A DNA stretch of 64,000 bases from an uncultured archaeon (GTDB lineage: Archaea > Altiarchaeota > Altiarchaeia > IMC4 > SCGC-AAA252-I15). Positions 25,323-62,300 of the stretch are shown piece after piece. Numbering within the stretch: position 1 is the stretch's first letter; each line of letters begins with the position of its first letter. The position numbers and the translations under genes are program-made. Location of the stretch: assembly GCA_964587725.1 (NCBI GenBank), contig CAZPLO010000001.1:16327-80326 (forward strand), read 5' to 3'. The notes beneath the pieces are model-generated. The model searched no databases. It saw only the letters and a program-made list of their open reading frames with translations, and had not been told where the DNA came from.

Positions 25323-25323
25323 C

Positions 25324-30234: not shown

Positions 30235-30268
30235 AGTTTTTATTACTGCACAGTAATGGTTTAGTAGG

Positions 30269-32892: not shown

Positions 32893-33209
32893 GCCTCCGG
32901 CTTCCCCATCAGGTTGGGGCTGCGGGGTTTCTTGTAGCCTCTGTCGTGGACGCGGTAGGATTCCTCGTTCAAGCCCAGTATGCTCACCAGCTCCGAACGC
33001 GCCACCAGAAACCTGCTGTGCCCGAGGAACGTGGACAGGTAGTCGGTGGTCAGACCGTTCAGCAGGCTCTCTTTTTCGACATCGCTCATGTGCTCGACGT
33101 CCATTATGCCTAGTTTCTTCATCTCGTTAACCAGGACCAATCCCCCGGACTTGCCGGACCACTTGAACATGAACTCCAGCAGCTGTCTGCCCACCTTGGC
33201 CATCTTCAC
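32889..33209 (-). CDS. Small hypothetical protein (106 aa) coupled to the KaiC-like ATPase
   Basis: Its start overlaps the KaiC-like stop by 4 nt; no recognisable family. Confidence 0.4.
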   Translation of the reverse strand: MKMAKVGRQLLEFMFKWSGKSGGLVLVNEMKKLGIMDVEHMSDVEKESLLNGLTTDYLSTFLGHSRFLVARSELVSILGLNEESYRVHDRGYKKPRSPNLMGKPEA

Positions 33210-33913: not shown

Positions 33914-33983
33914 AATAAAACCCCCCTTAGAACGTTAGATATTGAATGTTTTATTAAAATAACCGGGATTTAATACATTACCT

Positions 33984-45890: not shown

Positions 45891-46091
45891 ATGGCTAAGT
45901 GGATTATCGAACACGACCGTGACGCGTGCATCGGCTGCGGAGCCTGCGAGAAGGCGTGCGAGAACTGGGCTATGATGCCCGACGGAAAAAGCAAGCCCAA
46001 GAAGACCGATGTGGACGAGGTGGGGTGTAACCGTGACGCCGTCGACGTATGCCCCGTAGCATGCATTAAAGTGGTTGAAAAGAAGAAGTGA
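45891..46091 (+). CDS. 4Fe-4S ferredoxin (66 aa)
   Basis: Internal ATG of track ORF 45639..46091. CIGCGACEKAC plus a second Cys cluster ...C....D.CPVAC. Confidence 0.75.
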   Translation: MAKWIIEHDRDACIGCGACEKACENWAMMPDGKSKPKKTDVDEVGCNRDAVDVCPVACIKVVEKKK

Positions 46092-46110
46092 AAGGGGTTT
46101 AACCCCCTTT
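46091..46110. terminator. GC hairpin between convergent ferredoxin (+) and PC4-like (-) genes
   Basis: AAAGGGG-TTTAA-CCCCCTTT directly after the ferredoxin stop codon; flanked by A/T runs on both strands, so it could act bidirectionally. Confidence 0.45.
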
Positions 46111-46117
46111 GCAGATT

Positions 46118-46387
46118 CTAGTCCTCCAGGTCTTCGCCTGCGGACTCTGACTCGCCCGCCGGCACCTTCATGACCGACTGAAGCTTCTCTATTATCCCGT
46201 TTACTATCTCCTCCTCGGGCGGGAAACCAATCCCCCTCTGGTATCTCTTCTCCCCCTCTGGGGTGTAGTAGCCCTTGCTTATGTTCAAGAACACCGCGTT
46301 GTCTGGCATGACGCGCTTCTTTGATATCTCAATAAACTTGTTGCGTCCGTAGTCCACGTATTCTCCGGATATTGTCTCGTATTCCAT
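46118..46387 (-). CDS. PC4/YdbC-like putative ssDNA-binding protein (89 aa)
   Basis: ...GRNKFIEISKKRV....AVFLNISKGYYTPEGEKRYQRGIGFPPEE... resembles the PC4 C-terminal domain pattern (G..R.V.V..F.GK..IDIREY....G...PG.KGISL..EQ). Confidence 0.4.
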   Translation of the reverse strand: MEYETISGEYVDYGRNKFIEISKKRVMPDNAVFLNISKGYYTPEGEKRYQRGIGFPPEEEIVNGIIEKLQSVMKVPAGESESAGEDLED

Positions 46388-46460
46388 TTCCTTACCTCAA
46401 AACCTAAAGCCTAGTTTATAAGTAATCTATATTATAATTTAAATAGGAGAGGGTGAGAGA
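46388..46460 (+). promoter_or_regulatory. Promoter region of the second pilin operon
   Basis: AT-rich segment with TTTATAAGTAAT and TATATTATAATTTAAATAGG upstream of pilin gene 46461..46886. Confidence 0.35.
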
Positions 46461-46886
46461 TTGACTTCTAAGGGACAGGCTTCGCTGGAGTACATGGTTA
46501 TGCTGGCCATTTCGCTGGCGGTGTTCGCCGCCGTACTGTACGTCACCAGCATCCTCATCAGCACGAGCAGCGTTCAGGTGGGGGTGGACTCTGCCAACCG
46601 GGCTGTTGAGAAGCTCAAGTCTGCGGCGGACTTCATATACGTCCACGGCCACCCGTCGAGGACGGAGGTGAACGTCTACATACCCCCGAACATAGAAAAC
46701 ATGGACATCGTCGGCCGAAACAACAGTCTGAGGGCTAGGGTGGCGGTGGGGGAGACGTACACGGACATATACGGCGTGACGAAGGGGAAGATTTACGGCG
46801 ATTTGTCCTACGTGGACAAGGAAGGATACTACGTTTTGAGGGTGGAGTCGACTTCCCCCCACACCATAAACATCAGCGTGTTATGA
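46461..46886 (+). CDS. Type IV pilin, class III signal peptide (canonical DUF361 KG|QASLEY)
   Basis: (M)TSKG|QASLEYMVMLAISLAVFAAVLYV. The non-ATG start is taken from the track. An AT-rich promoter region lies upstream. Confidence 0.8.
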   Translation: MTSKGQASLEYMVMLAISLAVFAAVLYVTSILISTSSVQVGVDSANRAVEKLKSAADFIYVHGHPSRTEVNVYIPPNIENMDIVGRNNSLRARVAVGETYTDIYGVTKGKIYGDLSYVDKEGYYVLRVESTSPHTINISVL

Positions 46887-47834
46887 ATGCTCATGGACCG
46901 CAGAGCACAAGCGAGTATAGAGTTCATGGTGGTGGTGGGCGTAGTGCTGATGGTGTTCATCATACTCGGGTACGTCGTCTACAGGAATTTCGTGAAAAGC
47001 AATGACCTGAAGATACACATAGACGGCACCCGGGTGGCCAACCACGTGGCCGACAGCATCAACACAGTCAACGTCCTCGGCGACGGCTACAGCACCACCT
47101 CCATGGTCCCTGGCACACTCTACGGAGGCCGCCCGTACACCGTCAACTTCTACGAGAACGAGTCCGCAGTGTATTTGATGGGGAGCGGGTTCTCAACAGG
47201 CAGCGAACTCACCTTCAGCAGCCCGTTGTATACGAGCCAGATAGAATGCCTGCTCCCCGGTTGCGCCTCGGGATGCAACCAGACCGGCGGGGAACAGTGC
47301 CTGCAGGTCAACGACTCCATGACTGTGAAGCTGACGGGGTGGGGTGGAAGTGTGTACTTGAGCCCGAAGTTCAACGTGGAACAGCAGAGCTTGAGGGGGG
47401 ATGTAGTGTCTTATACCTCATACCAGGACCCCGACCCCTTCGCGGCCGAAGGCTTCGTATTGGGCGAGGAAGTGAACTGGAACGTGATGTATGTACATGA
47501 GAACGTCGACGACGGCTCGTTGAGCCTGGTGTTCAGCCTTAACCTGTCGGGGGAGGGGTTTAGGGCCGACGTCGAGGAGGTCTTGGGGGAGCGGGTGGAG
47601 TTCGGGTCGAACGATGACTTGGACGAATTCAACATGGACGTCGTGCCAGGAGCCGACGAGGGCCGGTGGAGTTCCGGCGGAGGGGACGTCGACGGAGGCT
47701 ACGTGAAATACGCCGGCGGATTCAGGGTGTGCGTGCAGCCGGAGACCATGCCGTCCGTGGAGTGGAGGTTCCTCAGCTCCGACGGAAACCACCTGACATT
47801 ATACGATGAGAGAGTATGCGTAACGTATCCGTGA
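46887..47834 (+). CDS. Pilin-like protein, class III signal peptide (315 aa)
   Basis: MLMDRRA|QASIEFMVVVGVVLMVFIILGYV (QASIEF motif); the start abuts the previous stop (TGAATG). Confidence 0.6.
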   Translation: MLMDRRAQASIEFMVVVGVVLMVFIILGYVVYRNFVKSNDLKIHIDGTRVANHVADSINTVNVLGDGYSTTSMVPGTLYGGRPYTVNFYENESAVYLMGSGFSTGSELTFSSPLYTSQIECLLPGCASGCNQTGGEQCLQVNDSMTVKLTGWGGSVYLSPKFNVEQQSLRGDVVSYTSYQDPDPFAAEGFVLGEEVNWNVMYVHENVDDGSLSLVFSLNLSGEGFRADVEEVLGERVEFGSNDDLDEFNMDVVPGADEGRWSSGGGDVDGGYVKYAGGFRVCVQPETMPSVEWRFLSSDGNHLTLYDERVCVTYP

Positions 47835-47836
47835 CG

Positions 47837-50086
47837 ATGAAGAAGGGGCAGATTTTCACGTGGGACATGATATTCGGGATTACGGTATTCCTGGTCGCCC
47901 TGGTGTTGGTGGTTTACCTGTGGGAGGCATCCTACCGTGAGCTCCGTCATGCGGAGGAAGCCTATGGGATGAACTGGCTTGCGGAGACGGTGTCGGAGCA
48001 GCTGGTGCGCACCGGCGGAGAGCCTCATTACTGGATTCCTGAGCAGGTGGTGGCATACGGATTAGCGGAGGTGCGCGGAGGGGAGGTGGCCGTGGATCCC
48101 CATGATCTGCAGATCAAGGTTTCGAGGAAGCCTGTGGAGAGCAGGGTGTTGGACGCGGACAAGATACTGTACCTGATAAAAGCCTTCCAAGAAGACTACG
48201 AGGGAGTCAGGAACAGGATGCTCGGTTCCTCCAGATACGATCTGTATGTGGAGCTGTCGTGCGTCAACCGCAGCGACCTCACCTGCCTGCAGGGATTGCA
48301 CCTGGACAACGTCAACGAACCCGTGCACTGCACAAACACCAGGGTAAGCGTCAGCGGATTCAGGACAGACAGTTACGTGTGGCTGGAGGCCGAGGACGTG
48401 TGGGGCAGCCCATCATCATCATTCTGCCTGAAGGGATGCAGCGGCGGAAACACGAGCAGGATAGATGATGTGGAACCTGTGACAGTGGGCATAGACCCGG
48501 GAAAGTACCAGATATGGGTTCGGGCCTACGAAGACAACAGCGACGCCAAGATAGTGTTGGATGGCGTGGAACACGGGATATATGGCCTCAGGCGACCGGG
48601 CAGCCTGGGGTGGAGCCACGTTGGCGAACAGGATCTCGACAGCGAAGTGGTGATAGGGTTCGCCGACACGGAGGATGGAAACCGGGTGGATGCTGTACTG
48701 CTTTCAACCGAAGGATCCTACACCCCCGGCGTAGAAAACATAGAATTTTACGGCAACCCCAACACCTTCGAATCGTGTATAATTGGAAATCCGAGTGAGG
48801 GAAGCGATACTGTGAGCTCCGCCAAAACCGCGGTGGTTGGCGTGCCCCTGAGCAGGACGGAGTTGCTGGGGGGCGTGCACAGGATACTCGACAAAGTGGT
48901 TGAGGTGAAGGTGGTTGTGTGGGGCGGGGAGGCTCTGCCGCCGCGTGAGATATCCGGGGAGTCGGCGACAACAACGACTACTACCCTGCCTCCAACGGAC
49001 ATAATATGCAGCGGCGGTGAACTGACGGAATACTGCGTAGCCAACTACCCGCCGGCCATAGACGTGACCGGCGTTAAGTTCTCCGGGGGGAACACGCTGT
49101 CGTGCGGAGACAGCAAGGACTTTACGGTGTCGTGGAGGGGCACCCACCTCAGGGACCCCAACTATTTCGCGTTCTACTTAGACAACAGGAGCTTCTTCCT
49201 CGGCGCCTGCAGCAGCTTCGTGGACGAAGGCGACCTCGGCTACCACAATTACAACATGAGCTGCGCCGTGGACGTGCCGGAAGGGCTGGATGTGGTGGAC
49301 GGGCAGCACGAGTTTATCGTAACCGCAGAAGACGAGGACGGATACTGCATGCCCGGTGACGAACGTGCCGACGACCAGGAATCCTACGCCGTCAACATCC
49401 AGAACTGTCTCGGCTACGCCAACCTGCCCTGTTCGCAGACGTACGGCAAGAAGAGTGGGTGCGTGGAGAACGTGAACAGCGTGGACACAGTATACAGGAT
49501 GGAGTCGAACGGTCTGGAGTGCACCAACTACGGCAACACCGCGGACACCTACTGGGGCGGCGGCCACGGAGACAGTGGGACAGTGTACTGGACCTATCTC
49601 CTGGAGGTCGACGGCTCATACGTGTGCCTCGCCACCTGCGAGTCCACGGGGGCGACAGCACACTATAACATGAGCTGCACGTTGAACCTGGGATCCGACT
49701 GCGACGGAAATCCATTAAACATTCCGGACGGACAGTACCGTCTGCTGGTTACCGCGGAAACCCACCCCGAAAACTACTGCAGAGACCCAGAGGCCGCGGA
49801 TGCTGTGGGCTCCGGCACGGTGTCTTGGAGCTGCGAAACCGGAGGGAGTAACGTCTTACTCACGTATTATATAGCCGACGCGTCCGGCGTCGAAGAGGCG
49901 GAACTATACTCTGACGTGTCAGGCAGCTGGGGTTACACCGCGGTTGAACCAGCCCCCACCCATAATGCGGGGGAGAATGCGGTGTTGTTGGTGAACGTGC
50001 CCCCAGGCACCTACCAGTGGAACATCAAACTACAGCCCCTGAGAGGCTTCTTATATGGGGAAAACCAAGTTTTTACTGTGGAGTAA
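47837..50086 (+). CDS. Large pilin-like adhesin (about 749 aa), class III signal peptide, Cys-rich
   Basis: Internal ATG of track ORF 47816..50086. MKKG|QIFTWDMIFGITVFLVALVLVV; many paired Cys, NxS/T sequons, Thr linker (ATTTTTTLPPT). Confidence 0.6.
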   Translation: MKKGQIFTWDMIFGITVFLVALVLVVYLWEASYRELRHAEEAYGMNWLAETVSEQLVRTGGEPHYWIPEQVVAYGLAEVRGGEVAVDPHDLQIKVSRKPVESRVLDADKILYLIKAFQEDYEGVRNRMLGSSRYDLYVELSCVNRSDLTCLQGLHLDNVNEPVHCTNTRVSVSGFRTDSYVWLEAEDVWGSPSSSFCLKGCSGGNTSRIDDVEPVTVGIDPGKYQIWVRAYEDNSDAKIVLDGVEHGIYGLRRPGSLGWSHVGEQDLDSEVVIGFADTEDGNRVDAVLLSTEGSYTPGVENIEFYGNPNTFESCIIGNPSEGSDTVSSAKTAVVGVPLSRTELLGGVHRILDKVVEVKVVVWGGEALPPREISGESATTTTTTLPPTDIICSGGELTEYCVANYPPAIDVTGVKFSGGNTLSCGDSKDFTVSWRGTHLRDPNYFAFYLDNRSFFLGACSSFVDEGDLGYHNYNMSCAVDVPEGLDVVDGQHEFIVTAEDEDGYCMPGDERADDQESYAVNIQNCLGYANLPCSQTYGKKSGCVENVNSVDTVYRMESNGLECTNYGNTADTYWGGGHGDSGTVYWTYLLEVDGSYVCLATCESTGATAHYNMSCTLNLGSDCDGNPLNIPDGQYRLLVTAETHPENYCRDPEAADAVGSGTVSWSCETGGSNVLLTYYIADASGVEEAELYSDVSGSWGYTAVEPAPTHNAGENAVLLVNVPPGTYQWNIKLQPLRGFLYGENQVFTVE

Positions 50087-50087
50087 C

Positions 50088-52196
50088 ATGAGGTGGCAGC
50101 ATATTATGGTGGTGGCGGTTCTTGCTTCCGCGGCCGCGGGGCAGCTGTCGATGCAGGTGGACGAGAGCAGCCAGACCTCCGGCGGCGGAGAATCCGTGGA
50201 ATACGGTTTAACGGTCACCAACGATGGAGCCGCCACACTGTGGGTGGACTTCCAGGCAATCGGTTTAAGCGAGGGTATGTCGGCTGCGATAGTCTACCGG
50301 GGGGGTTTCCTGGCTCCAGGAAACTCAAAAAATGCGATGGTGAAGGTGACGTCGGCCCCGTATGTTCCTGTCGGCTCATATCCCCTGCAGTTGAAGGCGA
50401 TACCGTCTGAGGGAATCCCTGTTGAAGTATCCGTAACATACAACGTGAACTCCACCCCCGTCACCACCACAACACTGTACCCGCCCACAACAACATCTTC
50501 AACCACTACGACACAGCCGACGACGTCGACCACAGTACCAACCAACGAAACCAGCACATCAACCAGCACACCAAGTTCGTCAACAAGTAGCACCTCATCC
50601 AGCACCAGCACGGCACCGTCAACCGCCTCAACCAGCTCATCATCAACCACCACGCCAAGTTCAACAAGCACGGCACCTTCTACCACAACCAGCACCGAAA
50701 CACCCACTACAACCACACTACCTCCAACCACCACGACCATAGTCAACATCACCACCACAACCTCCACAACCCAGCCGACCACCACCACCATACCCTCCTC
50801 CCTCGTGGCGGAGGGGACGGTGTACAGCTGCCCCGGCTCCTGCTACGACACCTACTGGTTCGACTCATCCAGCTTGTGCGGCGGCGCGCAGATAGGGGAC
50901 TGGGTTGGCTTCTACACCGGCGTGGAAACAGGGAACTGCTATCAGATTGCAGACACGTACTGCGACTACTGCTGGGACATATACCCGTGCGTGGATTTAG
51001 GGGTTCCGGTGAGGATAGCCACGAACGACCAGTTCAAGGTCTGGGGGCTGCAGGCCGACTGCCTTAACACGGTTCCGTCAACCACGACAACCACCCTGGC
51101 GCCGACCACAACGACACTGGCCCCCACAACCACTACAGTCACCAACGCCACAACCACCACACAGGCTCCGACCACCACGACCACGCCTTCTGGGCAGATA
51201 CTCCAGGGCACAGTATACAGCTGCTGGGAAGACTGCGCCAACGCAGACTACATAGACTCAACAGCACTCTGCGGGCCGGCGCAAACCGGAGACTACATAG
51301 GCTTCGCCACCGGACCCTCCGCGGGAACATGCGTTGAAATAATAGACCTGTACTGCGACGGATGCTGGAACATCGATTTCAACTGCGTCGGATTCCCCAC
51401 CCCGTTGACCATACAACCAGGAGACACCTTCGAAATATACGCCACACAGACGGAATGCGCAACCAACATGCCATCGACCACAACCACAACATCCACGACA
51501 ACCACCCTGGCGCCGACCACAACCATACCACCAACCACAACCACACGACCAACAGGCATGATACTCCAAGGCACAGTATACAGCTGCCCCGAACCATGCG
51601 ACAACACAGACTACATAGACTCAACAGCACTCTGCGGGCCGGCGCAAACCGGAGACTACATAGGCTTCGCCACCGGACCCTCCGCGGGAACATGCGTTGA
51701 AATAATAGACCTGTACTGCGACGGATGCTGGAACATCGATTTCAACTGCGTCGGATTCCCCACCCCGTTGACCATACAACCAGGAGACACCTTCGAAATA
51801 TACGCCACACAGACGGAATGCGCAACCAACATGCCATCGACCACAACCACAACATCCACGACAACCACCCTGGCGCCGACCACAACCATACCACCAACCA
51901 CAACCACACGACCAACAGGCATGATACTCCAAGGCACAGTATACAGCTGCTGGGAAGACTGCGCCAACGCAGACTACATAGACAGCCCCAGCCTATGTGG
52001 AGGCACCCAGGTAGGAGATTGGGTCGGCTTCTACAACGGCACCGAGGCAGGGAACTGCTACGAAGTAATAGACATATACTGTGACTACTGCTGGGGGGAC
52101 TACCCGTGCATAGGGACCGGCTTGGGAATGCAGCTGACGGAGGGAGACCTCTTCAGGGTGTGGGGGGCGCAGACGGAGTGTGTAAACTCGTTCTGA
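50088..52196 (+). CDS. Secreted modular protein: N-terminal domain + Thr/Ser-rich linkers + four roughly 100-aa Cys-rich (8 Cys) domains (A-B-B-A' arrangement)
   Basis: Internal ATG of the track ORF. Signal peptide MRWQHIMVVAVLASAAAGQ. Four repeats of GTVYSC..C....(Y)(I)DS..LCG..Q.GD..GF..G...G.C.E.ID.YCD.CW.....C........GD.F......TEC, separated by poly-Thr linkers. Repeats 2 and 3 are nearly identical. Confidence 0.65.
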   Translation: MRWQHIMVVAVLASAAAGQLSMQVDESSQTSGGGESVEYGLTVTNDGAATLWVDFQAIGLSEGMSAAIVYRGGFLAPGNSKNAMVKVTSAPYVPVGSYPLQLKAIPSEGIPVEVSVTYNVNSTPVTTTTLYPPTTTSSTTTTQPTTSTTVPTNETSTSTSTPSSSTSSTSSSTSTAPSTASTSSSSTTTPSSTSTAPSTTTSTETPTTTTLPPTTTTIVNITTTTSTTQPTTTTIPSSLVAEGTVYSCPGSCYDTYWFDSSSLCGGAQIGDWVGFYTGVETGNCYQIADTYCDYCWDIYPCVDLGVPVRIATNDQFKVWGLQADCLNTVPSTTTTTLAPTTTTLAPTTTTVTNATTTTQAPTTTTTPSGQILQGTVYSCWEDCANADYIDSTALCGPAQTGDYIGFATGPSAGTCVEIIDLYCDGCWNIDFNCVGFPTPLTIQPGDTFEIYATQTECATNMPSTTTTTSTTTTLAPTTTIPPTTTTRPTGMILQGTVYSCPEPCDNTDYIDSTALCGPAQTGDYIGFATGPSAGTCVEIIDLYCDGCWNIDFNCVGFPTPLTIQPGDTFEIYATQTECATNMPSTTTTTSTTTTLAPTTTIPPTTTTRPTGMILQGTVYSCWEDCANADYIDSPSLCGGTQVGDWVGFYNGTEAGNCYEVIDIYCDYCWGDYPCIGTGLGMQLTEGDLFRVWGAQTECVNSF
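51244..51961 (+). repeat. Perfect tandem duplication, 2 x 363 bp (about 355 bp of identity per copy), inside CDS 50088..52196
   Basis: A long identical DNA string begins around 51244 and again around 51607 (gactacatagactcaacagcactctgcgggccggcgcaaaccggagactacatagg...). The ORF track shows identical antisense ORFs offset by exactly 363 nt (51258..51569 and 51621..51932). Confidence 0.85.
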
Positions 52197-52229
52197 CGGG
52201 TTTTTAGACCCTAGTCTGTATTATAGTAC

Positions 52230-53702
52230 ATGGTCGCGTGGAGGAGGATAGCGTCTGAAACCCCCAGGTATCTGCCATACGCATTACTCGCCGTGATGGT
52301 GCTGGGGCATTTCATAGGGTTCTCCGCGACCGTGTTGAACGAGTTCAACAGGTTCTGGTACGGGAACTTCGACCTCGGCATACCAGACCAGGGCATGTGG
52401 CTGCTGTCGCGGTTCCACAACCCCTACCTGACGACGAGGGGCCTGCATTTGTTCGGAGACCACGCATCCTACATACACCTTCTGGTGGCGCCCCTGTACT
52501 GGATATGGAATGATGTGAAGGCGCTGCTGCTGCTCCACACCGCAGTCCTCGCGATAGGGGCGGTGCCCGTGTACCTGCTGGCTAAAGACAGATTCGGAGA
52601 CCGGTGGACTCCCCTGGTCTTCTCCCTCTCCTACCTGATGCTGCCTGCGCTTCATTACAGCAACCTCGACCAAGGATACCACTACGAGTCGTTCATGGTT
52701 CCGCTGATGCTGTTCGGCCACTGGCTCCTCACCCGCAAAAAAACCCGGCTGTACTACGGCACCGTTTTCCTGTCGCTGATATGTAAGGAGGAGATTGCGT
52801 TGACGTACATACTCTACGGGCTGTACGTGGCGTTGAAGCACGACCGCCGCGCAGGATTGACAACCTCCGTGGTTTCGCTAGTGTACCTGCTGGCAGTGAT
52901 GACTGTGCTGCTGCCGGCGTTCAACCAGGAGGGCGCGTTCTACAGCGGCAGGACACTTGGCTCGTACGGAGACACCATGGGGGAGAAAATAAGAAGCCTC
53001 ACCAACCCCTACTTCATGGAGGACAAAATCAACACCCCCGTGAACAGGAGATACGTGAAGGAGGTGCTGGCGCCCGTAGGCTACCTGCCGGTGTTAGAGC
53101 CGCTGGCGATAGCGTCTTCCGGTTCGCTGTGGCTTAACCTCCTCCAGGACTGGCCGTACGCCCACCATATACAGTACCACTATGTCACACCCATCATACC
53201 GATGATTTACATCGCCCTCATAGCCGGCGTCGGAAGGTTCAAAAATAATCTGTGGCTGAAGCAGGTGCTTTTGTTCACGGTCCTCGCATCCGCCGTGATA
53301 GGAAACTACCTGTACGCGCCCGACCAGAGCAGCCTCCGAGACCCAGGGCGAATGCTGGAGGAGGTTAGGAACTTCGACCGCGTGTCGGACGAGAACAGGG
53401 AGATACTCGAGTTGATGGAGTCCATACCCGACGACGCCTCCGTGTCGGCTTCATACGACTTCGTCAGCCACCTCAGCCACCGCATAACAATCTACATGTT
53501 CCCCAACCCCTTCCGCGTCAACCTCTACGGCATAGACGACAAAGGCGTCCACCCGGACCGGCGTGTCGACTACGTGCTCCTGGACGCCCGCCTCACAGAT
53601 GAGGAGGAAAGGGAACACGGCACCGTCAGCATGGTGAGGGACGAATACGAGCTGGTAGACGGCAGGGGGTACGCGCAGCTGTGGAAGAGAAAAAGTGAAT
53701 AA
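52230..53702 (+). CDS. DUF2079-like polytopic membrane protein (probable GT-C-type glycosyl/lipid transferase)
   Basis: 490 aa, about 11 TM helices, large loop with conserved-looking Asp/His residues (FGDHASYIHLL). The family assignment comes from memory of overall layout. Confidence 0.5.
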   Translation: MVAWRRIASETPRYLPYALLAVMVLGHFIGFSATVLNEFNRFWYGNFDLGIPDQGMWLLSRFHNPYLTTRGLHLFGDHASYIHLLVAPLYWIWNDVKALLLLHTAVLAIGAVPVYLLAKDRFGDRWTPLVFSLSYLMLPALHYSNLDQGYHYESFMVPLMLFGHWLLTRKKTRLYYGTVFLSLICKEEIALTYILYGLYVALKHDRRAGLTTSVVSLVYLLAVMTVLLPAFNQEGAFYSGRTLGSYGDTMGEKIRSLTNPYFMEDKINTPVNRRYVKEVLAPVGYLPVLEPLAIASSGSLWLNLLQDWPYAHHIQYHYVTPIIPMIYIALIAGVGRFKNNLWLKQVLLFTVLASAVIGNYLYAPDQSSLRDPGRMLEEVRNFDRVSDENREILELMESIPDDASVSASYDFVSHLSHRITIYMFPNPFRVNLYGIDDKGVHPDRRVDYVLLDARLTDEEEREHGTVSMVRDEYELVDGRGYAQLWKRKSE

Positions 53703-53750: not shown

Positions 53751-54437
53751 ATGCCCGAGTACAGCGTGTTGATTCCCGTATACAACGAGGAGGCGATACT
53801 GGAGGAGAAGCTGAAGCAGCTGGCAGACTACCTTGACGTCTTCAACCCCGACTACGAGGTCATCGTGTGCAGCAACGGCAGCAACGACCGTACGGACGAG
53901 GTAGGAGAGTCGTTGGGGATGCCGAAGGTCAGGTTCGCCGCCATCCCCGACAGGGGTGTGGGCAGGGCCTTCAAAAAAATGGTTCAGGAAGCCGGAAGCG
54001 AAAAAATTATTTCGATGGACGTGGATTTGAGCTCCGACCTCGAGTTCATACCAGAGTGCGTGCGCATGCTAGACGAATACGACGTCGTAGTCGGCTCAAA
54101 ACGGAAGGGGGAGCAGGAGCGGCAGTGGCACCGGACCTTCATAAGCGGCGTGTTCATTTGGATGGTTAAGGTGCTGCTCGGCCTAACATACGGGGACTAC
54201 AGCATCGGCACCAAGGGTTGGCGGCGGAGCAGCATAATAGGGTACGTTGATGGAATAGACCACGGCAGCTCCTACGTGGTGGAACTCATATACTATGTGG
54301 AACGCTCAGGCGGGAAGGTCATCGAGGTGCCCGTGTACTGTTCGGACACCCGGGGCAGCAGATTCAATCTCGTGCACGAGGTGTTCTACAGACTGAAGAA
54401 CCTTTTAAGCTTCTGGCTGCGGCCGAAGACCGTGTAG
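53751..54437 (+). CDS. GT2-family glycosyltransferase (dolichyl-phosphate hexose synthase-like)
   Basis: YSVLIPVYNEE N-terminus and a DxD-like motif (MDVDLSSD); 228 aa; an AT-rich promoter is upstream. The 3' end overlaps the convergent gene by about 50 nt, so one of the two ends is uncertain. Confidence 0.8.
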   Translation: MPEYSVLIPVYNEEAILEEKLKQLADYLDVFNPDYEVIVCSNGSNDRTDEVGESLGMPKVRFAAIPDRGVGRAFKKMVQEAGSEKIISMDVDLSSDLEFIPECVRMLDEYDVVVGSKRKGEQERQWHRTFISGVFIWMVKVLLGLTYGDYSIGTKGWRRSSIIGYVDGIDHGSSYVVELIYYVERSGGKVIEVPVYCSDTRGSRFNLVHEVFYRLKNLLSFWLRPKTV

Positions 54438-56593
54438 AGTATTACGGCGGCCGCGGAGACGGTGAGGAGGATGCCCAGCCAATCCACCGCGGTCTTACTG
54501 TATACCAGCCGCACCCGCTCCTCCGCCGGATAAACCAGCATGAAAGACGGCGACACCAGATAGACCCTGTCCGCGCCCTCCGCCCGCCAGCTCGGATAAT
54601 AGGAGACGCTTATTATGTGGGGTTCGCCCACGCAGTCGGTGGTGAACTCTATCGACTCCGCCTCCACGATTTCCCGGACGCTGCACTCCCTGCCGACGGG
54701 AGCTCCTTCCAGGGTTTCGAGGTCGCCCATCACCGCATCCTCGTAGACGGAGGTGAAGTGCTCACGGTCCACCGAATCCACGGAGTGTTTGAAGGCCACG
54801 GGCGTGTCCAACAGTTCAACGCGCTTGAACCATTGGTAGCTGATGTTCTTCCAGTCCGACGTCTCAAACAATACCGGACGGTTCTCTGGAACAGTCACGT
54901 ACTGCCCGGTGTTGGTGGTGAGCTCCCACACCTCAAACGGGTCCTCCGAGTAGGCGAGCCGCCACTCCGGATGCTCTCTTAAAGCTTTTTTGGCTTTCTC
55001 GCTCCGCGCAACCAGATACTGTGTGTTGAACAGCTTCAGGTGCTCGGTGCCGTTTCCAAGATTGAATGAGGTGCACGGATATATCGCCCAGAAGGGGCAG
55101 CTCTGCTGTTCACTCACCTCCGACTGTATGTAGAATGTGAAGGGGGACGTGTGTATGGACTGCATGTACAGGCCCTCCAGTATGCTGCGGCCCGCGAACA
55201 AAGGTATGCTCTCGAATGCACGCACGGTGCCGGCTGCGTTGTGCTGGTCGCTGTGCTCGAACTTCGCCCTCGGGCTGGCTACGCCGCCCCCCATGAAGTC
55301 GTTCACCGCCTTATACTGCGGCCACAGACTCTTCCTTTCGAACCCTTCGTAGTTCCACCGCACCCAGTGGGGGGTGAATCCGCTGTACTTCCACTCCAGC
55401 AGCTGCGGAACAACCTGGTTGGTGTTGAACTTCACCCCGTCGTCGGAGACCGACACAACAGCCTTGCTGCCGTTCACCCAGTAAACTGTGAGCAGTACTA
55501 CAATCAACGGGACAATCCATTTGGCCTTCAGCGGGCGGATGAGCTGCTGCAGCCCGTATGCGCCGGCGAGCATCAGCGTAACATAAACGAACGGGAGGAA
55601 CCGTATGTCCACCACACCCAGCTTCGAGGCGAGGAAGAAGAACACCAGACCCGACAATATGGAGTAGCCGAGATACCAGACCCTCTTATCCCGGCTGTAC
55701 AGTGAGGTGAAGAAGCCGAACCCCGCCAAAACCACGAACGGCCACAGAATCGGAGGCATCACGTCCTCCGTAATCCGCCAGGGTATGTCGTATGCTGTGG
55801 TGTATTTTATGCGGGCCAGCAGGGGTATAATCCAGAAGCCAGTAAGCATGAACGCGAGCGGATAGGATTTCGCCATGTACAGTATGCGAGATTTCACGTC
55901 GTCCATGTTTTTCCTCAGCAGCAGATAGGTAGTTGACAGCACAGCCCACAACACCGTGTACACGTGGGTCAACGCCACGAACGCCAGCAACACTGAGTTG
56001 TGGAGCACGTATTTCCTGTCTTCCATGCCGCGGTACATGAGGCCGAGGAACAGTATCGTCAGCGACAGGCTTATGCTGTAGCTGAATTCGCCGGCGAGGG
56101 TGCTGGGGATGTTGCCCCCCCACATGCTGTGGGACTCCATGAACAGGAACGGGAGAGAGAATGCGGCCGCCGCAGAGGGTACGGGGAACTTGAACCGCAT
56201 CAGCTTCATGCACGCGTAAGCCGTCAAAGGCAGGGTGAACACCCCCAGCACGGTCACCAGCTTGAACGCTATCTGCAGGGGCATCACATAGCTCATCAGC
56301 GCCATCAACACGAACGGGACCGTGAAGTAGAACTGGAACAACGGCATGCCGCCGTACCATCCCGGCAGCCACCCCATAACATGGCCTTTAGGCAGCAGTT
56401 CGTCGCGTAGGAACTCCGCAGGATAGTAATGTGATGCGGTGTCTCCGCCGGCGGTTATGGTCTCGCTCAACATCACGTCTGGGGTGAATACACTCAGGAG
56501 GAAGCCGTAGACCGCCAGCAACACCACCGCATCAACCACTGACTCCGCGGCGACCTCAACCCTGCGCCCCATGAACTCGAATGTGCGGCTCAT
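54386..56593 (-). CDS. Large polytopic membrane protein (about 735 aa), GT-C-like/YfhO-like candidate
   Basis: Start placed at the internal Met (MSRTFEF...), which gives a 4-nt overlap with the upstream CARDB-like gene. About 13 TM helices, a first loop with a D..SHYY element, a soluble C-terminal domain and a final TM. Confidence 0.5.
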   Translation of the reverse strand: MSRTFEFMGRRVEVAAESVVDAVVLLAVYGFLLSVFTPDVMLSETITAGGDTASHYYPAEFLRDELLPKGHVMGWLPGWYGGMPLFQFYFTVPFVLMALMSYVMPLQIAFKLVTVLGVFTLPLTAYACMKLMRFKFPVPSAAAAFSLPFLFMESHSMWGGNIPSTLAGEFSYSISLSLTILFLGLMYRGMEDRKYVLHNSVLLAFVALTHVYTVLWAVLSTTYLLLRKNMDDVKSRILYMAKSYPLAFMLTGFWIIPLLARIKYTTAYDIPWRITEDVMPPILWPFVVLAGFGFFTSLYSRDKRVWYLGYSILSGLVFFFLASKLGVVDIRFLPFVYVTLMLAGAYGLQQLIRPLKAKWIVPLIVVLLTVYWVNGSKAVVSVSDDGVKFNTNQVVPQLLEWKYSGFTPHWVRWNYEGFERKSLWPQYKAVNDFMGGGVASPRAKFEHSDQHNAAGTVRAFESIPLFAGRSILEGLYMQSIHTSPFTFYIQSEVSEQQSCPFWAIYPCTSFNLGNGTEHLKLFNTQYLVARSEKAKKALREHPEWRLAYSEDPFEVWELTTNTGQYVTVPENRPVLFETSDWKNISYQWFKRVELLDTPVAFKHSVDSVDREHFTSVYEDAVMGDLETLEGAPVGRECSVREIVEAESIEFTTDCVGEPHIISVSYYPSWRAEGADRVYLVSPSFMLVYPAEERVRLVYSKTAVDWLGILLTVSAAAVILYTVFGRSQKLKRFFSL

Positions 56594-57402
56594 CTCCGCA
56601 CCTGATAGTAAAGTAGTACGACAACCAGCGCAGCCAGTATTAATAGCGGCGTCCAAGGGGGGAGGCCGCCCTCACCCGCCTCCACAATGGACACCATGCC
56701 ATTGGCGGCCGCGCTGTAGTGGAAGTCCTCCTCAGCGTAGTCCATGGTCGCGAAAACAACGTAGCTGGACCCAGGCAGCGCCCCGAACGATTTCACCGGA
56801 AAAGACAGCCGGCTTATGCCCCGGGCTGGGACTTCAATGTCTCTGACGTAGTAGTTGGCTGCGAGTTCATCCGGGAGGTGCAGGCGGACGGTGACGTCAT
56901 GGGGTTTTTCGTCTAGGTTGCTGACCTCCAGGCGTAGGTCGCCTCCTTGTTCAGGGGTTATCTTGAGCTCCTCCACGGCTCCGCGAAGGCGGAACGGGGT
57001 GGGGTTCATGTAGCGTATGAACAGGGGGGAGATGGTGGAGAAGGGGTATGCGTTGGCGTCAGTGTAATGCGTCTTCAACACCACCGCATAGGTTCCCGGC
57101 TTCACGGAGTCGTTGACGGACACGGTGTAGGAGTGCGTCTGGGGTGCATTGGGGTTGAGCACGCCCAGGTGCGCCGGTTCAGCGGTGAAGCCTTCCGGAA
57201 GCACCAAATCCACTTGGACGTCGTATGCCGGCTCGTCGCCGGTGTTCAACACGGTCACGTTCAATGGGAAAGAGTCTTCCGTTACCACCTCCGTCTGCGC
57301 CACAGACACCGTCATCTGTATGTAGGATGCCGAACAAGACCCCGACAGAAGGCATAAGACTAAAAACGCGTTTAAAAGTCCGTCTTTCATGAAATCAGCC
57401 AC
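56590..57402 (-). CDS. Secreted CARDB/DUF11-like Ig-fold protein with C-terminal TM anchor
   Basis: Signal peptide (LLNAFLVLCLLSGSCSA). Two beta-sandwich-like modules (NVTVLNTGDEPAYDVQVDL..., LRLEVSNLDEKPHDVTVRL...). C-terminal TM followed by RR. Confidence 0.55.
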   Translation of the reverse strand: MADFMKDGLLNAFLVLCLLSGSCSASYIQMTVSVAQTEVVTEDSFPLNVTVLNTGDEPAYDVQVDLVLPEGFTAEPAHLGVLNPNAPQTHSYTVSVNDSVKPGTYAVVLKTHYTDANAYPFSTISPLFIRYMNPTPFRLRGAVEELKITPEQGGDLRLEVSNLDEKPHDVTVRLHLPDELAANYYVRDIEVPARGISRLSFPVKSFGALPGSSYVVFATMDYAEEDFHYSAAANGMVSIVEAGEGGLPPWTPLLILAALVVVLLYYQVRR

Positions 57403-57451: not shown

Positions 57452-59176
57452 ATGAATTTCTTAAGACGGCGTGGGCGCGCGGGGCAGGCGGGTTTGGAGA
57501 GCATAATACTCTACGGGGGCGTCATAGTCGTCTTGGCCGTGGGCTTGGTGGTGGTGTGGCAGAGCGGCATCCTCCGCCCCTTCCTGGGCCTCAAAGGCTA
57601 CGTGGGATTCAGCCAGGTGGTGCCTGAGGACTGGTCTGTGGGCGTGGACAACGTAGCCTACATGAGTTTGAAGAACACCGGCAGCGCGCCGGTCAACATA
57701 CACGCCCTCGGCGTCGACGTACGTGTTGGGAGGGTACAGTGTGAGCCCTCTCCTCTGGAGGCGGAGGCCGTGCAGCCTGGAGGCGGAGCCATACTGACGT
57801 TCATATGCCCCGGCCCGCCGCCGATAAACGATGAATACGAGGTCGGAGACTACTACGAAGCGGACGTCACCATAAACTACACCAACCTTGTTTCAAACCG
57901 GTTCCACCAGAGCGTGGGCAAACTATACGGTCTCATGGAGGTCGCGGACCTTCCCATCCCAACCACCGTCACCACCATGACGGGAACGACGCTGCCGTGC
58001 GGATGCTTTGAATGCGAATGCAACAAGTCGGGGGAGATAGATGAGGAAAACTGTGAGAAAATACGGTACGGACAGAGCTGCGACTACTGCCCGGAGAGAC
58101 TGGACCTGGACGGCAAGCGGAAGTGCTGGTACAGGGGCAAATGCGGGGACAACTGCAACATCAACAAGGACTGCGTGGACCGCAACGCCAACTACGGACA
58201 CCTTAACGTCTGCAGGGACTGCGTGGACGGAAAGTGCAGGGAGAGCTCGCACCCCTGGTATCCATCCTGCGGCCAGTGCGATTCGGAGGACGCGGGCACA
58301 CTCTACAGCCCTAAATGCGACGGCGAAGAATGCCCGTACTGCCAGAGGGAGTGGGTGCAGTTGAGCGAGCTCCCCGGCGAAAGCGAAGGATACTATAGTT
58401 ACTCCTGCACCACAGGAGACGACTGCGGGGACTCCTGCCTGAACTTCGGAGACGACGTGTACGAGGAGTGCCAGGTACGGTGCGTGCACTGCAGCGAAAC
58501 CCCTGGCGGAGAGCCCACCTGCAGCCAGGGAAGCTGCGGGGAACGCTGCAGCGTAACAGACGACCCCACCTGCAACAGAGGCTGCCTGTGGTGCAACCTC
58601 ACAACGTACAAGTGCGAATTGGGAGACTGCGGCAGACCCTGCGTGATAGGGGACGACGCCTGCCAGCTCGGCTGTGATACTTGCTGGGACGGACGGTGCG
58701 TCGACACCGAAGTAGGCGTCACCATAGACGCGCACAACGGCACCGGCGGAGACGTGGTGGCTGAGAACACCACCATCCACCTGGACGTCCGCGGAGAATG
58801 CGACGACGGAATACACCGGATTCTGGTCAGCAACAGCATACCTCTGCCCCGTGGATTCGACGGCATCACCAGCTGCAGGGACGTGGCCAACGACCGAAAC
58901 AGGCTCGGCGCGATAGAGGATCCGTACGGCGACCCCCAGACTGCGGAGTGGATGAACACGTGGAACATAACCTGGAACGACACATATAGCTGCGGCGGCG
59001 TGAGCCCCTGCGCCAACGTGTGGGAGACCAACGAGTCCGAGATAAACGTTTACTGTTATTTCGCATTGGCTCAGAAGCAGACGCTGTTCGGCGGAGGCAG
59101 GTGGAGCATGATAGCGTCCGACTACATCCAGGTAGGGGACATCGACGTCTACCTTGCTTTCCCGCCTCCCTTTTAG
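57452..59176 (+). CDS. Pilin-like protein with class III signal peptide and hyper-Cys-rich extracellular region (574 aa, more than 60 Cys)
   Basis: MNFLRRRGRAG|QAGLESIILYGGVIVVLAVGLVVV is a QxxxE prepilin-like start followed by a hydrophobic helix. Residues about 185-400 are packed with CxxC, CGxC and DCxDGKC-type motifs. Confidence 0.6.
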   Translation: MNFLRRRGRAGQAGLESIILYGGVIVVLAVGLVVVWQSGILRPFLGLKGYVGFSQVVPEDWSVGVDNVAYMSLKNTGSAPVNIHALGVDVRVGRVQCEPSPLEAEAVQPGGGAILTFICPGPPPINDEYEVGDYYEADVTINYTNLVSNRFHQSVGKLYGLMEVADLPIPTTVTTMTGTTLPCGCFECECNKSGEIDEENCEKIRYGQSCDYCPERLDLDGKRKCWYRGKCGDNCNINKDCVDRNANYGHLNVCRDCVDGKCRESSHPWYPSCGQCDSEDAGTLYSPKCDGEECPYCQREWVQLSELPGESEGYYSYSCTTGDDCGDSCLNFGDDVYEECQVRCVHCSETPGGEPTCSQGSCGERCSVTDDPTCNRGCLWCNLTTYKCELGDCGRPCVIGDDACQLGCDTCWDGRCVDTEVGVTIDAHNGTGGDVVAENTTIHLDVRGECDDGIHRILVSNSIPLPRGFDGITSCRDVANDRNRLGAIEDPYGDPQTAEWMNTWNITWNDTYSCGGVSPCANVWETNESEINVYCYFALAQKQTLFGGGRWSMIASDYIQVGDIDVYLAFPPPF

Positions 59177-59183
59177 GTTTAAG

Positions 59184-62100
59184 ATGAGCAGAGGCTACGT
59201 GGTCACCTGGGACGCGCTGATTGCCCTCAGCTTCGTCCTCTTCCTGATGGTGGGTTTCATAGGCGTACAGTACTTCGGCCGCGTCGCCCGCGGAGGCAGC
59301 GCCTTCGAACGCGCTCACGCGGTGGCCGAGAACGCCATGGACACCATGAACCGCCAGGGTGTGCTGGAGGAGATAGCCCAGGAGTGGGCTCTCGGAAACA
59401 ACGCGTCCGCAGGAAACCTAACCAAAGAATACTTCGACAACGTAATACCCCCGCAGATGGGATACCGCCTTGAGGCCGTCACCCCCGGGGGTGTGAAGGC
59501 CATATACGGCAGCGGAGACGACCGGCCCCCGGAAGAAGACGCCACGGACCAGACCAAAGCCTCCAGACACCTCTCCGGATACAAGGAGGACGCCCCCAGG
59601 TCGGGGTGGACGGGCCGCGCGTGGCTCATAGAAAACCAGAGCTGGTCCGTAAACCTCGTCTCGAACAGGAGCTCTTTTTTCCCGGGCTGGGAGAGCGTGT
59701 CCCTGAAATACAGTCCTGTTCCCCTGAGAAACAACACATTCTATCTCTTGGTGCCGGGTGGAAGCAGCCTTAAACACGCCTCCTTCAACGTCAGCTGGGA
59801 GGGGGGGTCGGTCCCCTCCTACACCACCTTAACCTCTTCATCCAGTTCGTCGTCCTCCAGCTCAACCTCCTCTTCCTCCACCACGGAGCCGAGGGACTGC
59901 CACGACTGTCCGCCAGGAGAAGGCTGCGGCACACCCGGATGGCATGAGATGTCCGGGGACGACTACAACTACCACAACTTCACCATCGGTTCTGGGGACA
60001 GCTGCAACCTCAACCTTAACATATACCGGGAACCGGCCAACCACATGCTGGGGTTCAACCTCTATGACATATACTTCAACCGGATGGACTACTGCGAGCC
60101 CTGCCCGCCGGATGACCCTAACTGCCAGTGCATGTGCAGCCACCCCGAGAGCAGGCCGGACCTGAGGCCCTGGGACTGCGAGACCATAGACATTTTCTAC
60201 GAAAGCTACGAATCCTGTCCAGTGCCGGACCTGCCTCCCGGAACCTACGAGATTATGGTGGACTGCTGGAACCCTGAGGGGATTTCAGTCGACTTCTGCC
60301 CCGGCAGATACTACGTGTACGTAACCTCCGACGGCGGCGACAACTGCCCCAACGACCCGCCCCCGTCCTTCTCCACATCAACTTCCACCGCGGCGACCAC
60401 CGTGGAGGAACCGGGCATGATAGCGCACTGGAAGTTCGACGAAAGCACCGGGCAGATTGCCCTAGACTCCATAGGCGACCACGACGGCACCCTGTACGGG
60501 CCCGAGCGAACGGATGATGCGGTGGACGGACGGGCTTTGTATTTCACCGGCACCGGCGACCTAGTCAGCGTACCCGACGATTCCGCTCTGGATTTGGCGG
60601 AATTCACCCTTGTGGCGTGGATTAAAATGGACAGCAGCGCCCAGCTAGACAATTACCCCGCCATAGTGGGTAAGGGAACGGGGGGTAACAGTAACAGAAA
60701 CTACCGGATGGGGGTGATACAGGCCTCAGGGACAGCTGAGGGAGGCTTCCACAACACCGCCGGGGGATGGATTTCCGTTGAGGGAGATTACGTGGGAGAC
60801 AACACCTGGCACCATGTGGTGTTAACCTATGACCGGTCCCATCTGAGGATATACGTGGACGGTGAAGAACCAAACTCCTTACCGGCGACCGGCACGCCCG
60901 CAACAAACAACGAACCCCTGGAGATAGGCAATGTTGAAGGTGATGATTTAAAGGGTATCGTAGACGACGTGAGGATGTACAATTACGCCCTTGACGCGGG
61001 GGAGGTTCAGTCCATCTACGATGAAACAAGGCCGGACAACAAGGGAGACGCCTGCACCGAGGACAGCGACTGCATGTCGGGGAACTGCGCGCCAGACTAC
61101 GACGGGGATGGAAGCTGGTGTGCTCCGGCGGGCAACTGCGCCCACAGCCCCACCAGCTCATGCGATGAAACCTGCTACGGATACCGACAGGGAGACTACG
61201 GCGCAGACTGCATAGACGACACCCACCTGCACCAGTGCGACCCGGACGGAAACGGCGACGGGGTGTGGGGAATCGTTCTCTGCCCGGTATGCAGTCCCGC
61301 GGAGCCGGAACCCAAGGACACCCCCTGCATAGGAAGGTGGATGTGCCAGGACACCGGCGGCCATGCCTCCTGCGACGCAGGCTGCACCAGAGACGGGGCG
61401 GCATGCGACTTCTGCGGAAGCTACGCCAGGGACACGCCAGGAAGCGACACTTGGTACGACGGAGAATGCCTGGCCGGGGTGTGCGAGACCGTTAAGATAG
61501 AGTGCCAGCGTTGTATGTCCTGCAGGAACCTGTCACAGTACGAGTGTTTGTGCACGGCAACCGGAGGCGTCAACAACTACGTCTACGGCGAGGAGGATAA
61601 CGTGGGACCCAACACCTGCTACGGAACACAATACTGTGACGGCGCGGGGGGCTGCCTGTCGCCGGTAACATGCTCCAACTGGCCCATCAACATAATATAT
61701 GAGTCAGATATGTGCTCCGACTCGTGGGACTGCGACGACGACGGAAGCGAAGACGGCAACCACACGAGGTTAAGCTGGAGAAACCATGGTTCCGGAGACT
61801 ACTACATTGGGGGGTGGCACGAGTATGATGACCCTGTGGAGGAATGGACTCACACGAACCGGGACGACGATGACGTCTCCATAGGGGTGGAGCAGGTAGA
61901 TTTTGACGGAAGCCCCTACGTACACCACGGCTCCTCATTCGACTTCACAGCCTACGTGGGGGAGGGAGTCGACACGTTAAGCTTTGGCTTCTCTGCCATG
62001 CCAAGAGGCAACTGCTATGAAACAGTAGAACTCTACGCCTCCGGAACCCTGCTGGGATCCTGCGACATAGGGGGCGTGGACTGCAACAACGACAACCTGC

Positions 62101-62300
62101 TACCCCCCGTAGGTGATTCGGTGTGGCATTACTGCACCATAGATGTGAGTGGAATCCAGGGCGGGGGACCGGTGACGCCGGGTGCGGTCAACACATTCAA
62201 CGTCGAATTCCCGCTGCTCCCCGGTGTTTCTGGACCGATGGGTTGCAGCGCGTACCCGTGCACCATGTTCATCGACGCGATAGGTATTACATGCGGCTGA
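59184..62300 (+). CDS. Giant pilin-like adhesin (about 1038 aa) with LamG/ConA-like lectin domain and Cys-rich modules
   Basis: Internal ATG of track ORF 59154..62300. MSRG|YVVTWDALIALSFVLFLMVGF N-terminus. Central LamG-like signature (...GRALYFTGTGDLVSVPDDSALDLAEFTLVAWIKMDS...WHHVVLTYDRSHLRIYVDGEE...DDVRMYNYAL). Ser linker SSSSSSSSSSTSSSS. Many Cys. Confidence 0.6.
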   Translation: MSRGYVVTWDALIALSFVLFLMVGFIGVQYFGRVARGGSAFERAHAVAENAMDTMNRQGVLEEIAQEWALGNNASAGNLTKEYFDNVIPPQMGYRLEAVTPGGVKAIYGSGDDRPPEEDATDQTKASRHLSGYKEDAPRSGWTGRAWLIENQSWSVNLVSNRSSFFPGWESVSLKYSPVPLRNNTFYLLVPGGSSLKHASFNVSWEGGSVPSYTTLTSSSSSSSSSSTSSSSTTEPRDCHDCPPGEGCGTPGWHEMSGDDYNYHNFTIGSGDSCNLNLNIYREPANHMLGFNLYDIYFNRMDYCEPCPPDDPNCQCMCSHPESRPDLRPWDCETIDIFYESYESCPVPDLPPGTYEIMVDCWNPEGISVDFCPGRYYVYVTSDGGDNCPNDPPPSFSTSTSTAATTVEEPGMIAHWKFDESTGQIALDSIGDHDGTLYGPERTDDAVDGRALYFTGTGDLVSVPDDSALDLAEFTLVAWIKMDSSAQLDNYPAIVGKGTGGNSNRNYRMGVIQASGTAEGGFHNTAGGWISVEGDYVGDNTWHHVVLTYDRSHLRIYVDGEEPNSLPATGTPATNNEPLEIGNVEGDDLKGIVDDVRMYNYALDAGEVQSIYDETRPDNKGDACTEDSDCMSGNCAPDYDGDGSWCAPAGNCAHSPTSSCDETCYGYRQGDYGADCIDDTHLHQCDPDGNGDGVWGIVLCPVCSPAEPEPKDTPCIGRWMCQDTGGHASCDAGCTRDGAACDFCGSYARDTPGSDTWYDGECLAGVCETVKIECQRCMSCRNLSQYECLCTATGGVNNYVYGEEDNVGPNTCYGTQYCDGAGGCLSPVTCSNWPINIIYESDMCSDSWDCDDDGSEDGNHTRLSWRNHGSGDYYIGGWHEYDDPVEEWTHTNRDDDDVSIGVEQVDFDGSPYVHHGSSFDFTAYVGEGVDTLSFGFSAMPRGNCYETVELYASGTLLGSCDIGGVDCNNDNLLPPVGDSVWHYCTIDVSGIQGGGPVTPGAVNTFNVEFPLLPGVSGPMGCSAYPCTMFIDAIGITCG

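Follow-up and report, generated by a model that had tools for sequence, protein, structure and literature searches.

An adhesin-like candidate surface protein with a tandemly repeated eight-cysteine module, encoded at the end of a pilin-like operon in an uncultured altiarchaeon

We report that a 64,000-nucleotide stretch of DNA (the window) from an uncultured archaeon of the Altiarchaeota (assembly GCA_964587725.1, contig CAZPLO010000001.1, positions 16,327 to 80,326 of the forward strand; positions given below are those of the window) carries, as the fourth gene of a pilin-like operon, a gene for a modular protein with four eight-cysteine (8-Cys) domains, two of which are covered by an exact, in-frame tandem repeat. 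Altiarchaeota and related lineages have not been cultivated, and most knowledge of their surface appendages comes from microscopy. We suggest, with a probability of roughly one half, that the gene product is a glycosylated, multivalent, pilus-associated and adhesin-like surface protein, encoded by the last and variable gene of the operon and reshaped by intragenic recombination. The 8-Cys module represents a new domain family, very rare and with a predicted fold of a known type; the kind of protein that carries it is familiar, the archaeal lineage little known, and no general concept is changed by it.

The gene, its product and its operon

The focal gene lies in one long open reading frame (ORF; 50055-52196, plus strand), its likely start being the ATG at 50088, and its product of 702 amino acids (aa) consists of 22% Thr and 9% Ser (Table 1). 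A first-pass annotation, made from the sequence alone, had described a modular, secreted protein with four 8-Cys domains set apart by Thr/Ser linkers, and this anatomy was borne out. The GTVYSC starts of the four domains are at 50814, 51207, 51570 and 51933, each domain comprises approximately 90 aa with eight Cys, 31 columns are invariant among the four, and the Thr-rich linkers between them (38, 28 and 28 aa) are 74-84% Thr/Ser/Pro. A signal peptide of the Sec type was recognised by eye, and the protein looks secreted; the N-terminus, MRWQHIMVVAVLASAAAGQ, has no KG/Q motif and no match to Class_IIIsignal or Pilin_N in Pfam, and so does not qualify as that of an archaeal type IV pilin. Domain 4 forms the C-terminus, without a hydrophobic anchor after it. 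Neither the window nor any locus fetched holds extra copies of the 8-Cys domain, and the window has no tRNA or Rfam features.

The N-terminal domain is homologous to that of a protein from a related genome (P0002, see below; 36% identity, E 1e-16). By pattern resemblance only, it is possibly an immunoglobulin (Ig) fold like those of CARDB and NPCBM_assoc; as an assignment this was rejected, given that Pfam returned no match and that BLASTP against the window's own NPCBM_assoc protein gave a non-significant E-value of 0.41. The public gene call for the focal protein (P0001, 458 aa) is truncated: it begins at a GTG inside domain 1, the missing part corresponding approximately to 50088-50820 of the window. 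Across the Thr/Ser spacer, the gene call of one Logan contig (L003) has a spurious ORF on the opposite strand (165 aa, rich in Val and Gly; 50294-50791, minus strand). The N-terminal domain and the spacer are therefore absent from the database entries.

Table 1. Coordinates of the operon, the focal gene, its repeats and neighbouring genes in the window
Feature	Position	Strand	Basis or remark
Likely promoter and ribosome-binding site of the operon (TATA-like, A/T-rich stretch and GGAG)	46415-46449	+	promoter function putative
Pilin-like gene 1, 141 aa, MTSKGQASLEY...	46461-46886	+	Pfam Class_IIIsignal, 25.9 bits (cut-off 23.7)
Pilin-like gene 2, 315 aa, ...RRAQASIEF...	46887-47834	+	Class_IIIsignal, 18.9 bits, below cut-off
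Large pilin-like gene 3, 756 aa, MKKGQIFTWDMIFGITVFLVAL...	47816-50086	+	no Pfam match; class III signal by eye
Focal gene, 702 aa plus stop	50088-52196	+	ORF list
Sec-type signal peptide MRWQHIMVVAVLASAAAG	50088-50141	+	read from sequence; cleavage site putative
N-terminal domain, approximately 105 aa	50142-50456	+	homologous to N-terminus of P0002
Thr/Ser/Pro spacer, 115 aa (84% T+S+P; two N-x-S/T sequons)	50457-50801	+	composition
8-Cys domain 1 (A type)	50802-51080	+	
Linker 1, Thr-rich, 38 aa	51081-51194	+	composition
8-Cys domain 2 (B type, W-E-D head)	51195-51473	+	
51-bp head tract, identical to 51933-51983	51207-51257	+	base-by-base comparison
Exact repeat, copy 1 (344 bp, spanning B body, linker and GMILQGTVYSC)	51244-51587	+	base-by-base comparison
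8-Cys domain 3 (B type, P-E-P head)	51558-51836	+	
Variable patch (C10-x3-C14 loop plus 3 residues), the only difference between units	51588-51606	+	8 nt in 4 codons
Exact repeat, copy 2	51607-51950	+	base-by-base comparison
8-Cys domain 4 (A-type body; head the same as in domain 2)	51921-52193	+	
Domain 4 head tract, 51 bp, the same as 51207-51257	51933-51983	+	base-by-base comparison
T5 run, 5 nt after the focal stop, possible archaeal terminator ending the operon	52201-52205	+	terminator-like hairpin plus T-run listed; function putative
DUF2079 membrane protein, candidate glycosyltransferase for the stalks	52230-53702	+	Pfam, E 9e-62; role putative
GT2	53751-54437		
PTPS_related	54386-56656	-	Pfam family
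PMT_2	35970-37592		Pfam family
T2SSE-like ATPase	23670-25322	-	second pilus-like locus
KaiC-like gene	25324-26052	-	second pilus-like locus
T2SSE	30269-32008		second pilus-like locus
T2SSF	33984-34964		second pilus-like locus
1705-aa beta-helix/NosD protein with Big_13	13160-18277	-	large surface-type protein
574-aa protein, no family	57452-59176		large surface-type; conserved downstream in related genomes
1048-aa Laminin_G_3 protein	59154-62300		large surface-type; conserved downstream in related genomes

The first-pass annotation had placed the gene directly after a pilin operon. It does follow the pilin genes, but this understates its position: the gene belongs to the operon as its fourth member, starting after a gap of 1 nt, and the arrangement is conserved in a related genome. 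The last 19 nt of pilin-like gene 2 (47816-47834) are shared with the start of the 756-aa gene; a similar overlap is called in related loci, and its recurrence suggests translational coupling.

The related genome, the Altiarchaeales metagenome-assembled genome GCA_014727915.1 (locus L004, 10001-19018), is syntenic, with genes for DUF460, PurF, ArgJ, rhomboid, DUF2085, nitroreductase, glutaredoxin, ferredoxin, a pilin of 141 aa, a pilin of 324 aa, a 763-aa protein and DUF2079, and a sequence nearly identical to the putative promoter region of the window (CTAGTTTATAAGTAAT...TATAATTTAAATAGGAG) lies upstream of its orthologous pilin gene. The slot of the focal gene is held there by P0002 (3005 aa), which has two 8-Cys domains. 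Eleven relatives of the 756-aa protein were found in total, the 763-aa protein of GCA_014727915.1 being 43-47% identical to it; gene 1 has an orthologue of 141 aa in GCA_014727915.1, GCA_043804895.1 (L015, 10001-13264) and GCA_964467145.1 (L016, 10001-12853), and the syntenic orthologues of gene 2 are 306-324 aa long. Judging from those loci of 756-aa relatives that could be read, the last slot varies. On a Joint Genome Institute (JGI) contig, 3300075153, it is occupied by an 831-aa CARDB protein. The other two genomes have no fourth gene; in GCA_043804895.1 gene 3 instead reaches 1087 aa through an extension made up of a Ser-rich linker, a Cys-rich part and a lectin-like end, and in GCA_964467145.1 it terminates in an F5_F8_type_C (discoidin) domain. 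The 8-Cys domain is absent from these three operon loci. The operon thus consists of pilin, pilin, large pilin-like protein and a variable gene, and is conserved in Altiarchaeota.

Further 8-Cys proteins were sought by searching 1.84 billion (1.84e9) representative proteins exhaustively with a HMMER profile, as the first-pass annotation had suggested for a hidden Markov model of the domains. Five proteins matched, the focal one included, with E-values from 1e-190 to 2e-5. Apart from P0001 these are P0002 (MBD3388488.1, an NCBI hypothetical protein of Candidatus Altiarchaeales), P0005 (336 aa, an NCBI hypothetical protein of Candidatus Altiarchaeota), and two proteins of JGI metagenomes, P0003 (399 aa) and P0004 (970 aa). 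P0005 is encoded in GCA_043804895.1 at another pilus locus, directly before genes for a 451-aa pilin-like protein, a T2SSE ATPase and two T2SSF proteins. Read from a longer start (P0006), P0003 begins with MQKRG|MTQVVETIILVLILL and has a weak Pilin_N match, that is, its 8-Cys domain is fused to a pilin-like N-terminus. P0004 lies outside any pilin context, on a contig with SecG that looks bacterial. Taking the window and the loci of P0002, P0005 and P0003/P0006 together, four of the five family members therefore occur in type IV pilin contexts, P0004 being the exception. As a separate observation, locus L011 has two adjacent pilin-like genes (7986-9200 and 9247-10569) with the same 54-aa N-terminus and different Cys-rich globular parts, an 8-Cys-family domain being found in the first only; this pair looks like cassette-style diversification of pilin heads.

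Genes for glycosyltransferase-like membrane proteins (PMT_2, DUF2079 and PTPS_related, membrane families of the GT-C type) and for a GT2 protein are found around the operon, and the same set stays linked in other Altiarchaeota. The DUF2079 gene is kept next to the operon in GCA_014727915.1 and on the JGI contig; literature searches for DUF2079, as for the run and assembly accessions, yielded nothing.

On the reading that we prefer, a pilus-associated adhesin-like protein, the focal product would be exported by Sec, each module of approximately 90 aa would form a small, closed beta-barrel that four disulfides probably hold together, and the Thr/Ser stalks would be glycosylated, the products of the PMT_2, DUF2079, PTPS_related and GT2 genes being candidate enzymes by neighbourhood. 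The stalks would keep the four barrels off the cell, giving a multivalent binding (adhesin-like) array which most likely works with a filament or complex of the three upstream pilin-like proteins. This array would be remodelled by intragenic homologous recombination, with breakpoints in the conserved GTVYSC and DYID microhomologies.

The most serious competitor, although we consider it a good deal less probable, is an envelope or matrix glycoprotein (S-layer-associated or of a biofilm matrix) that acts independently of any pilus and is merely encoded beside pilin genes and the genes for its own glycosylation. The focal signal peptide is indeed of the Sec type and not class III, DUF2079, GT2 and PTPS_related follow immediately downstream and are linked in other genomes even where the fourth gene is missing, and P0004 carries an 8-Cys domain away from any pilin context. 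It is harder to reconcile with the tight coupling of the focal gene to gene 3, the T-run being found only after the focal gene, and with the gene in the same position in GCA_014727915.1. Moreover, in GCA_043804895.1 and GCA_964467145.1 the large pilin-like protein itself carries fused binding-type domains, and P0006 has its 8-Cys domain directly on a pilin-like N-terminus; the case for a functional link to the pilus, beyond mere adjacency, is best made by these fusions.

Tandem repeat and recombination within the gene

Tandem Repeats Finder reported a period of 363 with 2.2 copies and a score of 1512. Base-by-base comparison showed that 51244-51587 and 51607-51950 are identical over 344 bp, in frame and covering domains 2 and 3, which is far beyond chance. 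The repeat unit of 363 bp corresponds to 121 codons, i.e. one domain and one linker, with 344 of the 363 bp identical. The perfect in-frame duplication of domains 2 and 3 with period 363 noted in the first-pass annotation was thereby confirmed, with the exact tract being 344 and not about 355 bp long and its right ends at 51587 and 51950 rather than 51598 and 51961. The two units differ by 8 nt, all of them within 19 bp (51225-51243 versus 51588-51606); these affect four codons, all non-synonymously, and change WEDCANA to PEPCDNT between domains 2 and 3. No second copy or donor of the P-E-P patch is present within the window.

Domain 4 had been read as a mosaic, and this holds: its first 51 bp match the head of domain 2 exactly, at an offset of 726 bp, and are followed by an A-type body with an amino-acid identity of 55% to domain 1 and 43% to domain 2. 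Domain 4 thus appears to be an old, diverged A-type domain onto which the head of domain 2 was copied. The order along the gene is a W-E-D head with B body and linker, a P-E-P head with the same B body and the same linker, and a W-E-D head with an A-type body. The ends of the identical tracts fall in the conserved segments GGCACAGTATACAGCTGC (GTVYSC) and GACTACATAGAC (DYID), and a 31-mer of linker 1 (51082-51112) is found again in linkers 2 and 3.

A single tandem duplication followed by drift does not fit the pattern, because the heads should then match and the differences should be scattered; instead there are a 344-bp tract, a 51-bp tract and one 19-bp patch of clustered non-synonymous changes. 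As judged from these tracts, at least two recombination or conversion events would be needed to produce the pattern, the order of which cannot be reconstructed. The patchwork of identical tracts makes recombination or gene conversion, as proposed in the first-pass annotation, a reasonable interpretation. The likeness to phase-variable adhesins that came with that proposal does not hold, since the 121-codon unit keeps the frame and inverted repeats of the invertible-promoter type are missing. A change in copy number would therefore alter the length of the protein and not its frame. On/off phase variation was considered and rejected on the same grounds, the inverted repeats across 45900-52400 being only short, imperfect and scattered.

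A 344-bp exact repeat exceeds the typical length of short reads, and the perfect duplication, or the copy number, could be a product of assembly (a graph loop or a strain chimera), in which case the real gene would have three, or more than four, domains. The full-length array is known from one assembly only: the one database entry that matches the focal protein identically (P0001) is from a single 253-kb NCBI contig, presumably of the same assembly. Logan contigs (k=31; SRR7048219 and SRR7048220) end at the edges of the repeats, with L003 ending at 51111 and L001 and L002 beginning at 51954, and leave the array unspanned. These breakpoints are where the 31-mers of the window become repeated, 51954 being the first unique 31-mer past the head tract. 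On both flanks of the array, on the other hand, these contigs match the window at 100% identity, with 0 mismatches over 5.6 and 11.7 kb, which supports the outer junctions independently. The P-E-P head (51588-51606), moreover, is unique in the window and has linker 2 on its left and a B body on its right (18 bp are common with the alternative left flank); any genome with that head therefore carries at least two tandem B units. The assembled order is also the minimal path through the graph, which makes two copies a lower bound; the real number may be higher, or the population may be mixed. Taken together these data make an assembly product improbable.

The 8-Cys family and its predicted fold

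That the domain family was not recognised in the first-pass annotation agrees with our searches: Pfam and NCBIfam gave no family for the whole focal protein, the nine domain sequences scanned singly against Pfam at E up to 10 gave no family and only two stray single-member matches, and a sequence profile of the domain had no matches in the PDB at E up to 10. Word-indexed searches with alignments of four and nine domains matched nothing, although P0001-P0005 are in the collection searched; this negative result therefore reflects how poorly the tool handles short Cys-rich domains, and it is the exhaustive profile search that counts.

All nine domains have F37, G40, G44, C46, C57, C63, F78 and C87 as invariant positions. 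The core motif, [WY][VI]GF-x-[TS]G-x3-G-x-C ... CW ... C ... GD-x-F-x-[VI][WYF] ... C, includes four core Cys and is present in the window, P0002, P0003/P0006, P0004 and P0005. The remaining cysteines are lost in pairs, with P0003 lacking C10 and C14 and P0004 lacking C10, C14, C26 and C54. This pairwise loss suggests disulfides between C10 and C14, between C26 and C54, and two more among C46, C57, C63 and C87.

AlphaFold applied to the four window copies only gave an unusable model (predicted local distance difference test, pLDDT, 43). With the nine-sequence alignment the structure prediction that the first-pass annotation had recommended succeeded, all five models having a pLDDT of 91.7-92.7 and a predicted template modelling score of 0.84, and showing an all-beta domain with a short C-terminal helix. 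Foldseek searches of the model against the PDB and viral models returned nothing at E <= 1e-3, and the model has generic, fold-level resemblance to small beta-barrels only. The 8-Cys module is predicted to be a small closed beta-barrel, probably of a common fold, with a sequence family that is undescribed and very rare.

The barrels compared were of the EF-Tu domain II-like kind, namely the N-terminal domain of GH110 (7jw4, 8pvs), decorations of phage hub, Dit and tail-tube proteins (8gtc, 8vjh, 9n71) and N-terminal domains of tailspikes. They share 7-20% sequence identity with the module, without a sequence match or a significant Foldseek E-value, and the comparison is one of fold alone, the eight-cysteine framework being the hallmark of the 8-Cys family. 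That such barrels adjoin the catalytic domains of GH110 glycosidases and of phage depolymerases/tailspikes would fit a divergent member of an existing carbohydrate-binding-module family, and hence nothing new, but the first-pass annotation's refuting case, a match of the domain to a known family of this kind, was not found by sequence, and we regard this explanation as very improbable.

The loop between C10 and C14 is the segment that varies most in length across the family, and the variable patch between the two repeat units coincides with it, making it a candidate specificity loop, although this is speculation. Taking this further, the 8-Cys barrel might be an undescribed, pilus-dedicated binding module of Altiarchaeota and of ultra-small lineages near them, attached to a pilin N-terminus (P0006) or else forming a free-standing array encoded by the last gene of a minor-pilin operon, with its specificity in the C10-C14 loop, the only site that differs between the units, as if diversified by short-tract recombination. 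We put this forward tentatively and think it rather unlikely in this full form.

Wider context and comparison with known systems

The window has a second, larger type IV pilus-like locus (23670-34964), in which at least five small or medium-sized genes with pilin-like N-termini lie between approximately 27.2 and 30.2 kb. A 469-aa gene product of this locus (MRGYLFTALTVLML) has a weak match to the 451-aa neighbour of P0005. Genes for large surface-type proteins are also present (Table 1).

The locus can be viewed as a conserved three-gene pilin-like core with a swappable gene for a binding protein at its end, and the public gene call for the focal protein is revealed as truncated. The gene provides a clean example of what would be the rebuilding of a tandem array by recombination in an archaeal surface protein. 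The 8-Cys module, which is small, confidently modelled and probably disulfide-rich, is suited to expression and ligand tests.

The closest known protein is P0002, which occupies the same slot after the same three pilin-like genes in GCA_014727915.1 and shares with the focal protein a homologous N-terminal domain, 8-Cys domains and Thr-rich linkers. It differs in its size and in having CARDB, GEVED and many other Cys-rich modules, and has neither a perfect tandem duplication of 8-Cys domains nor a long Thr/Ser spacer after the N-terminal domain. Thr-rich O-glycosylated stalks are known from the S-layer glycoprotein of Halobacterium salinarum, and Pro/Thr linkers from cellulases. The focal protein likewise has long Thr/Ser/Pro runs between folded extracellular domains, with PMT_2, DUF2079 and PTPS_related membrane proteins encoded nearby; its glycosylation, in comparison, is putative, and enzymes and substrate are connected by neighbourhood.

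Alpha C/Rib of Streptococcus agalactiae, SasG/Aap of Staphylococcus and the fungal Als/Flo proteins are secreted and modular, with units of domain and linker that are identical at the DNA level and with recombination that changes length and valency in frame. Identical in-frame tandem units of whole domains are found in the focal gene as well, in a protein that appears to be exported (signal peptide by inspection). The known proteins are from other domains of life, have unrelated folds and an LPXTG or glycosylphosphatidylinositol wall anchor, and their copy number is documented to vary among strains, the focal gene being known from one assembly. PilY1/PilC-type proteins are adhesins, not pilins themselves, whose genes accompany those for the minor pilins of bacterial type IV pili. 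Like these, the focal gene encodes a large, apparently Sec-exported protein without a pilin N-terminus inside a minor-pilin-like operon, in the same order as in GCA_014727915.1. Unlike these, it is archaeal, its association with a filament is putative, and its C-terminal part is made up of predicted 8-Cys barrels and not of the PilY1/PilC beta-propeller (no Pfam match). The focal gene thus belongs to neither group, and by analogy it resembles the tandem-repeat surface proteins in its behaviour and PilY1/PilC in its position.

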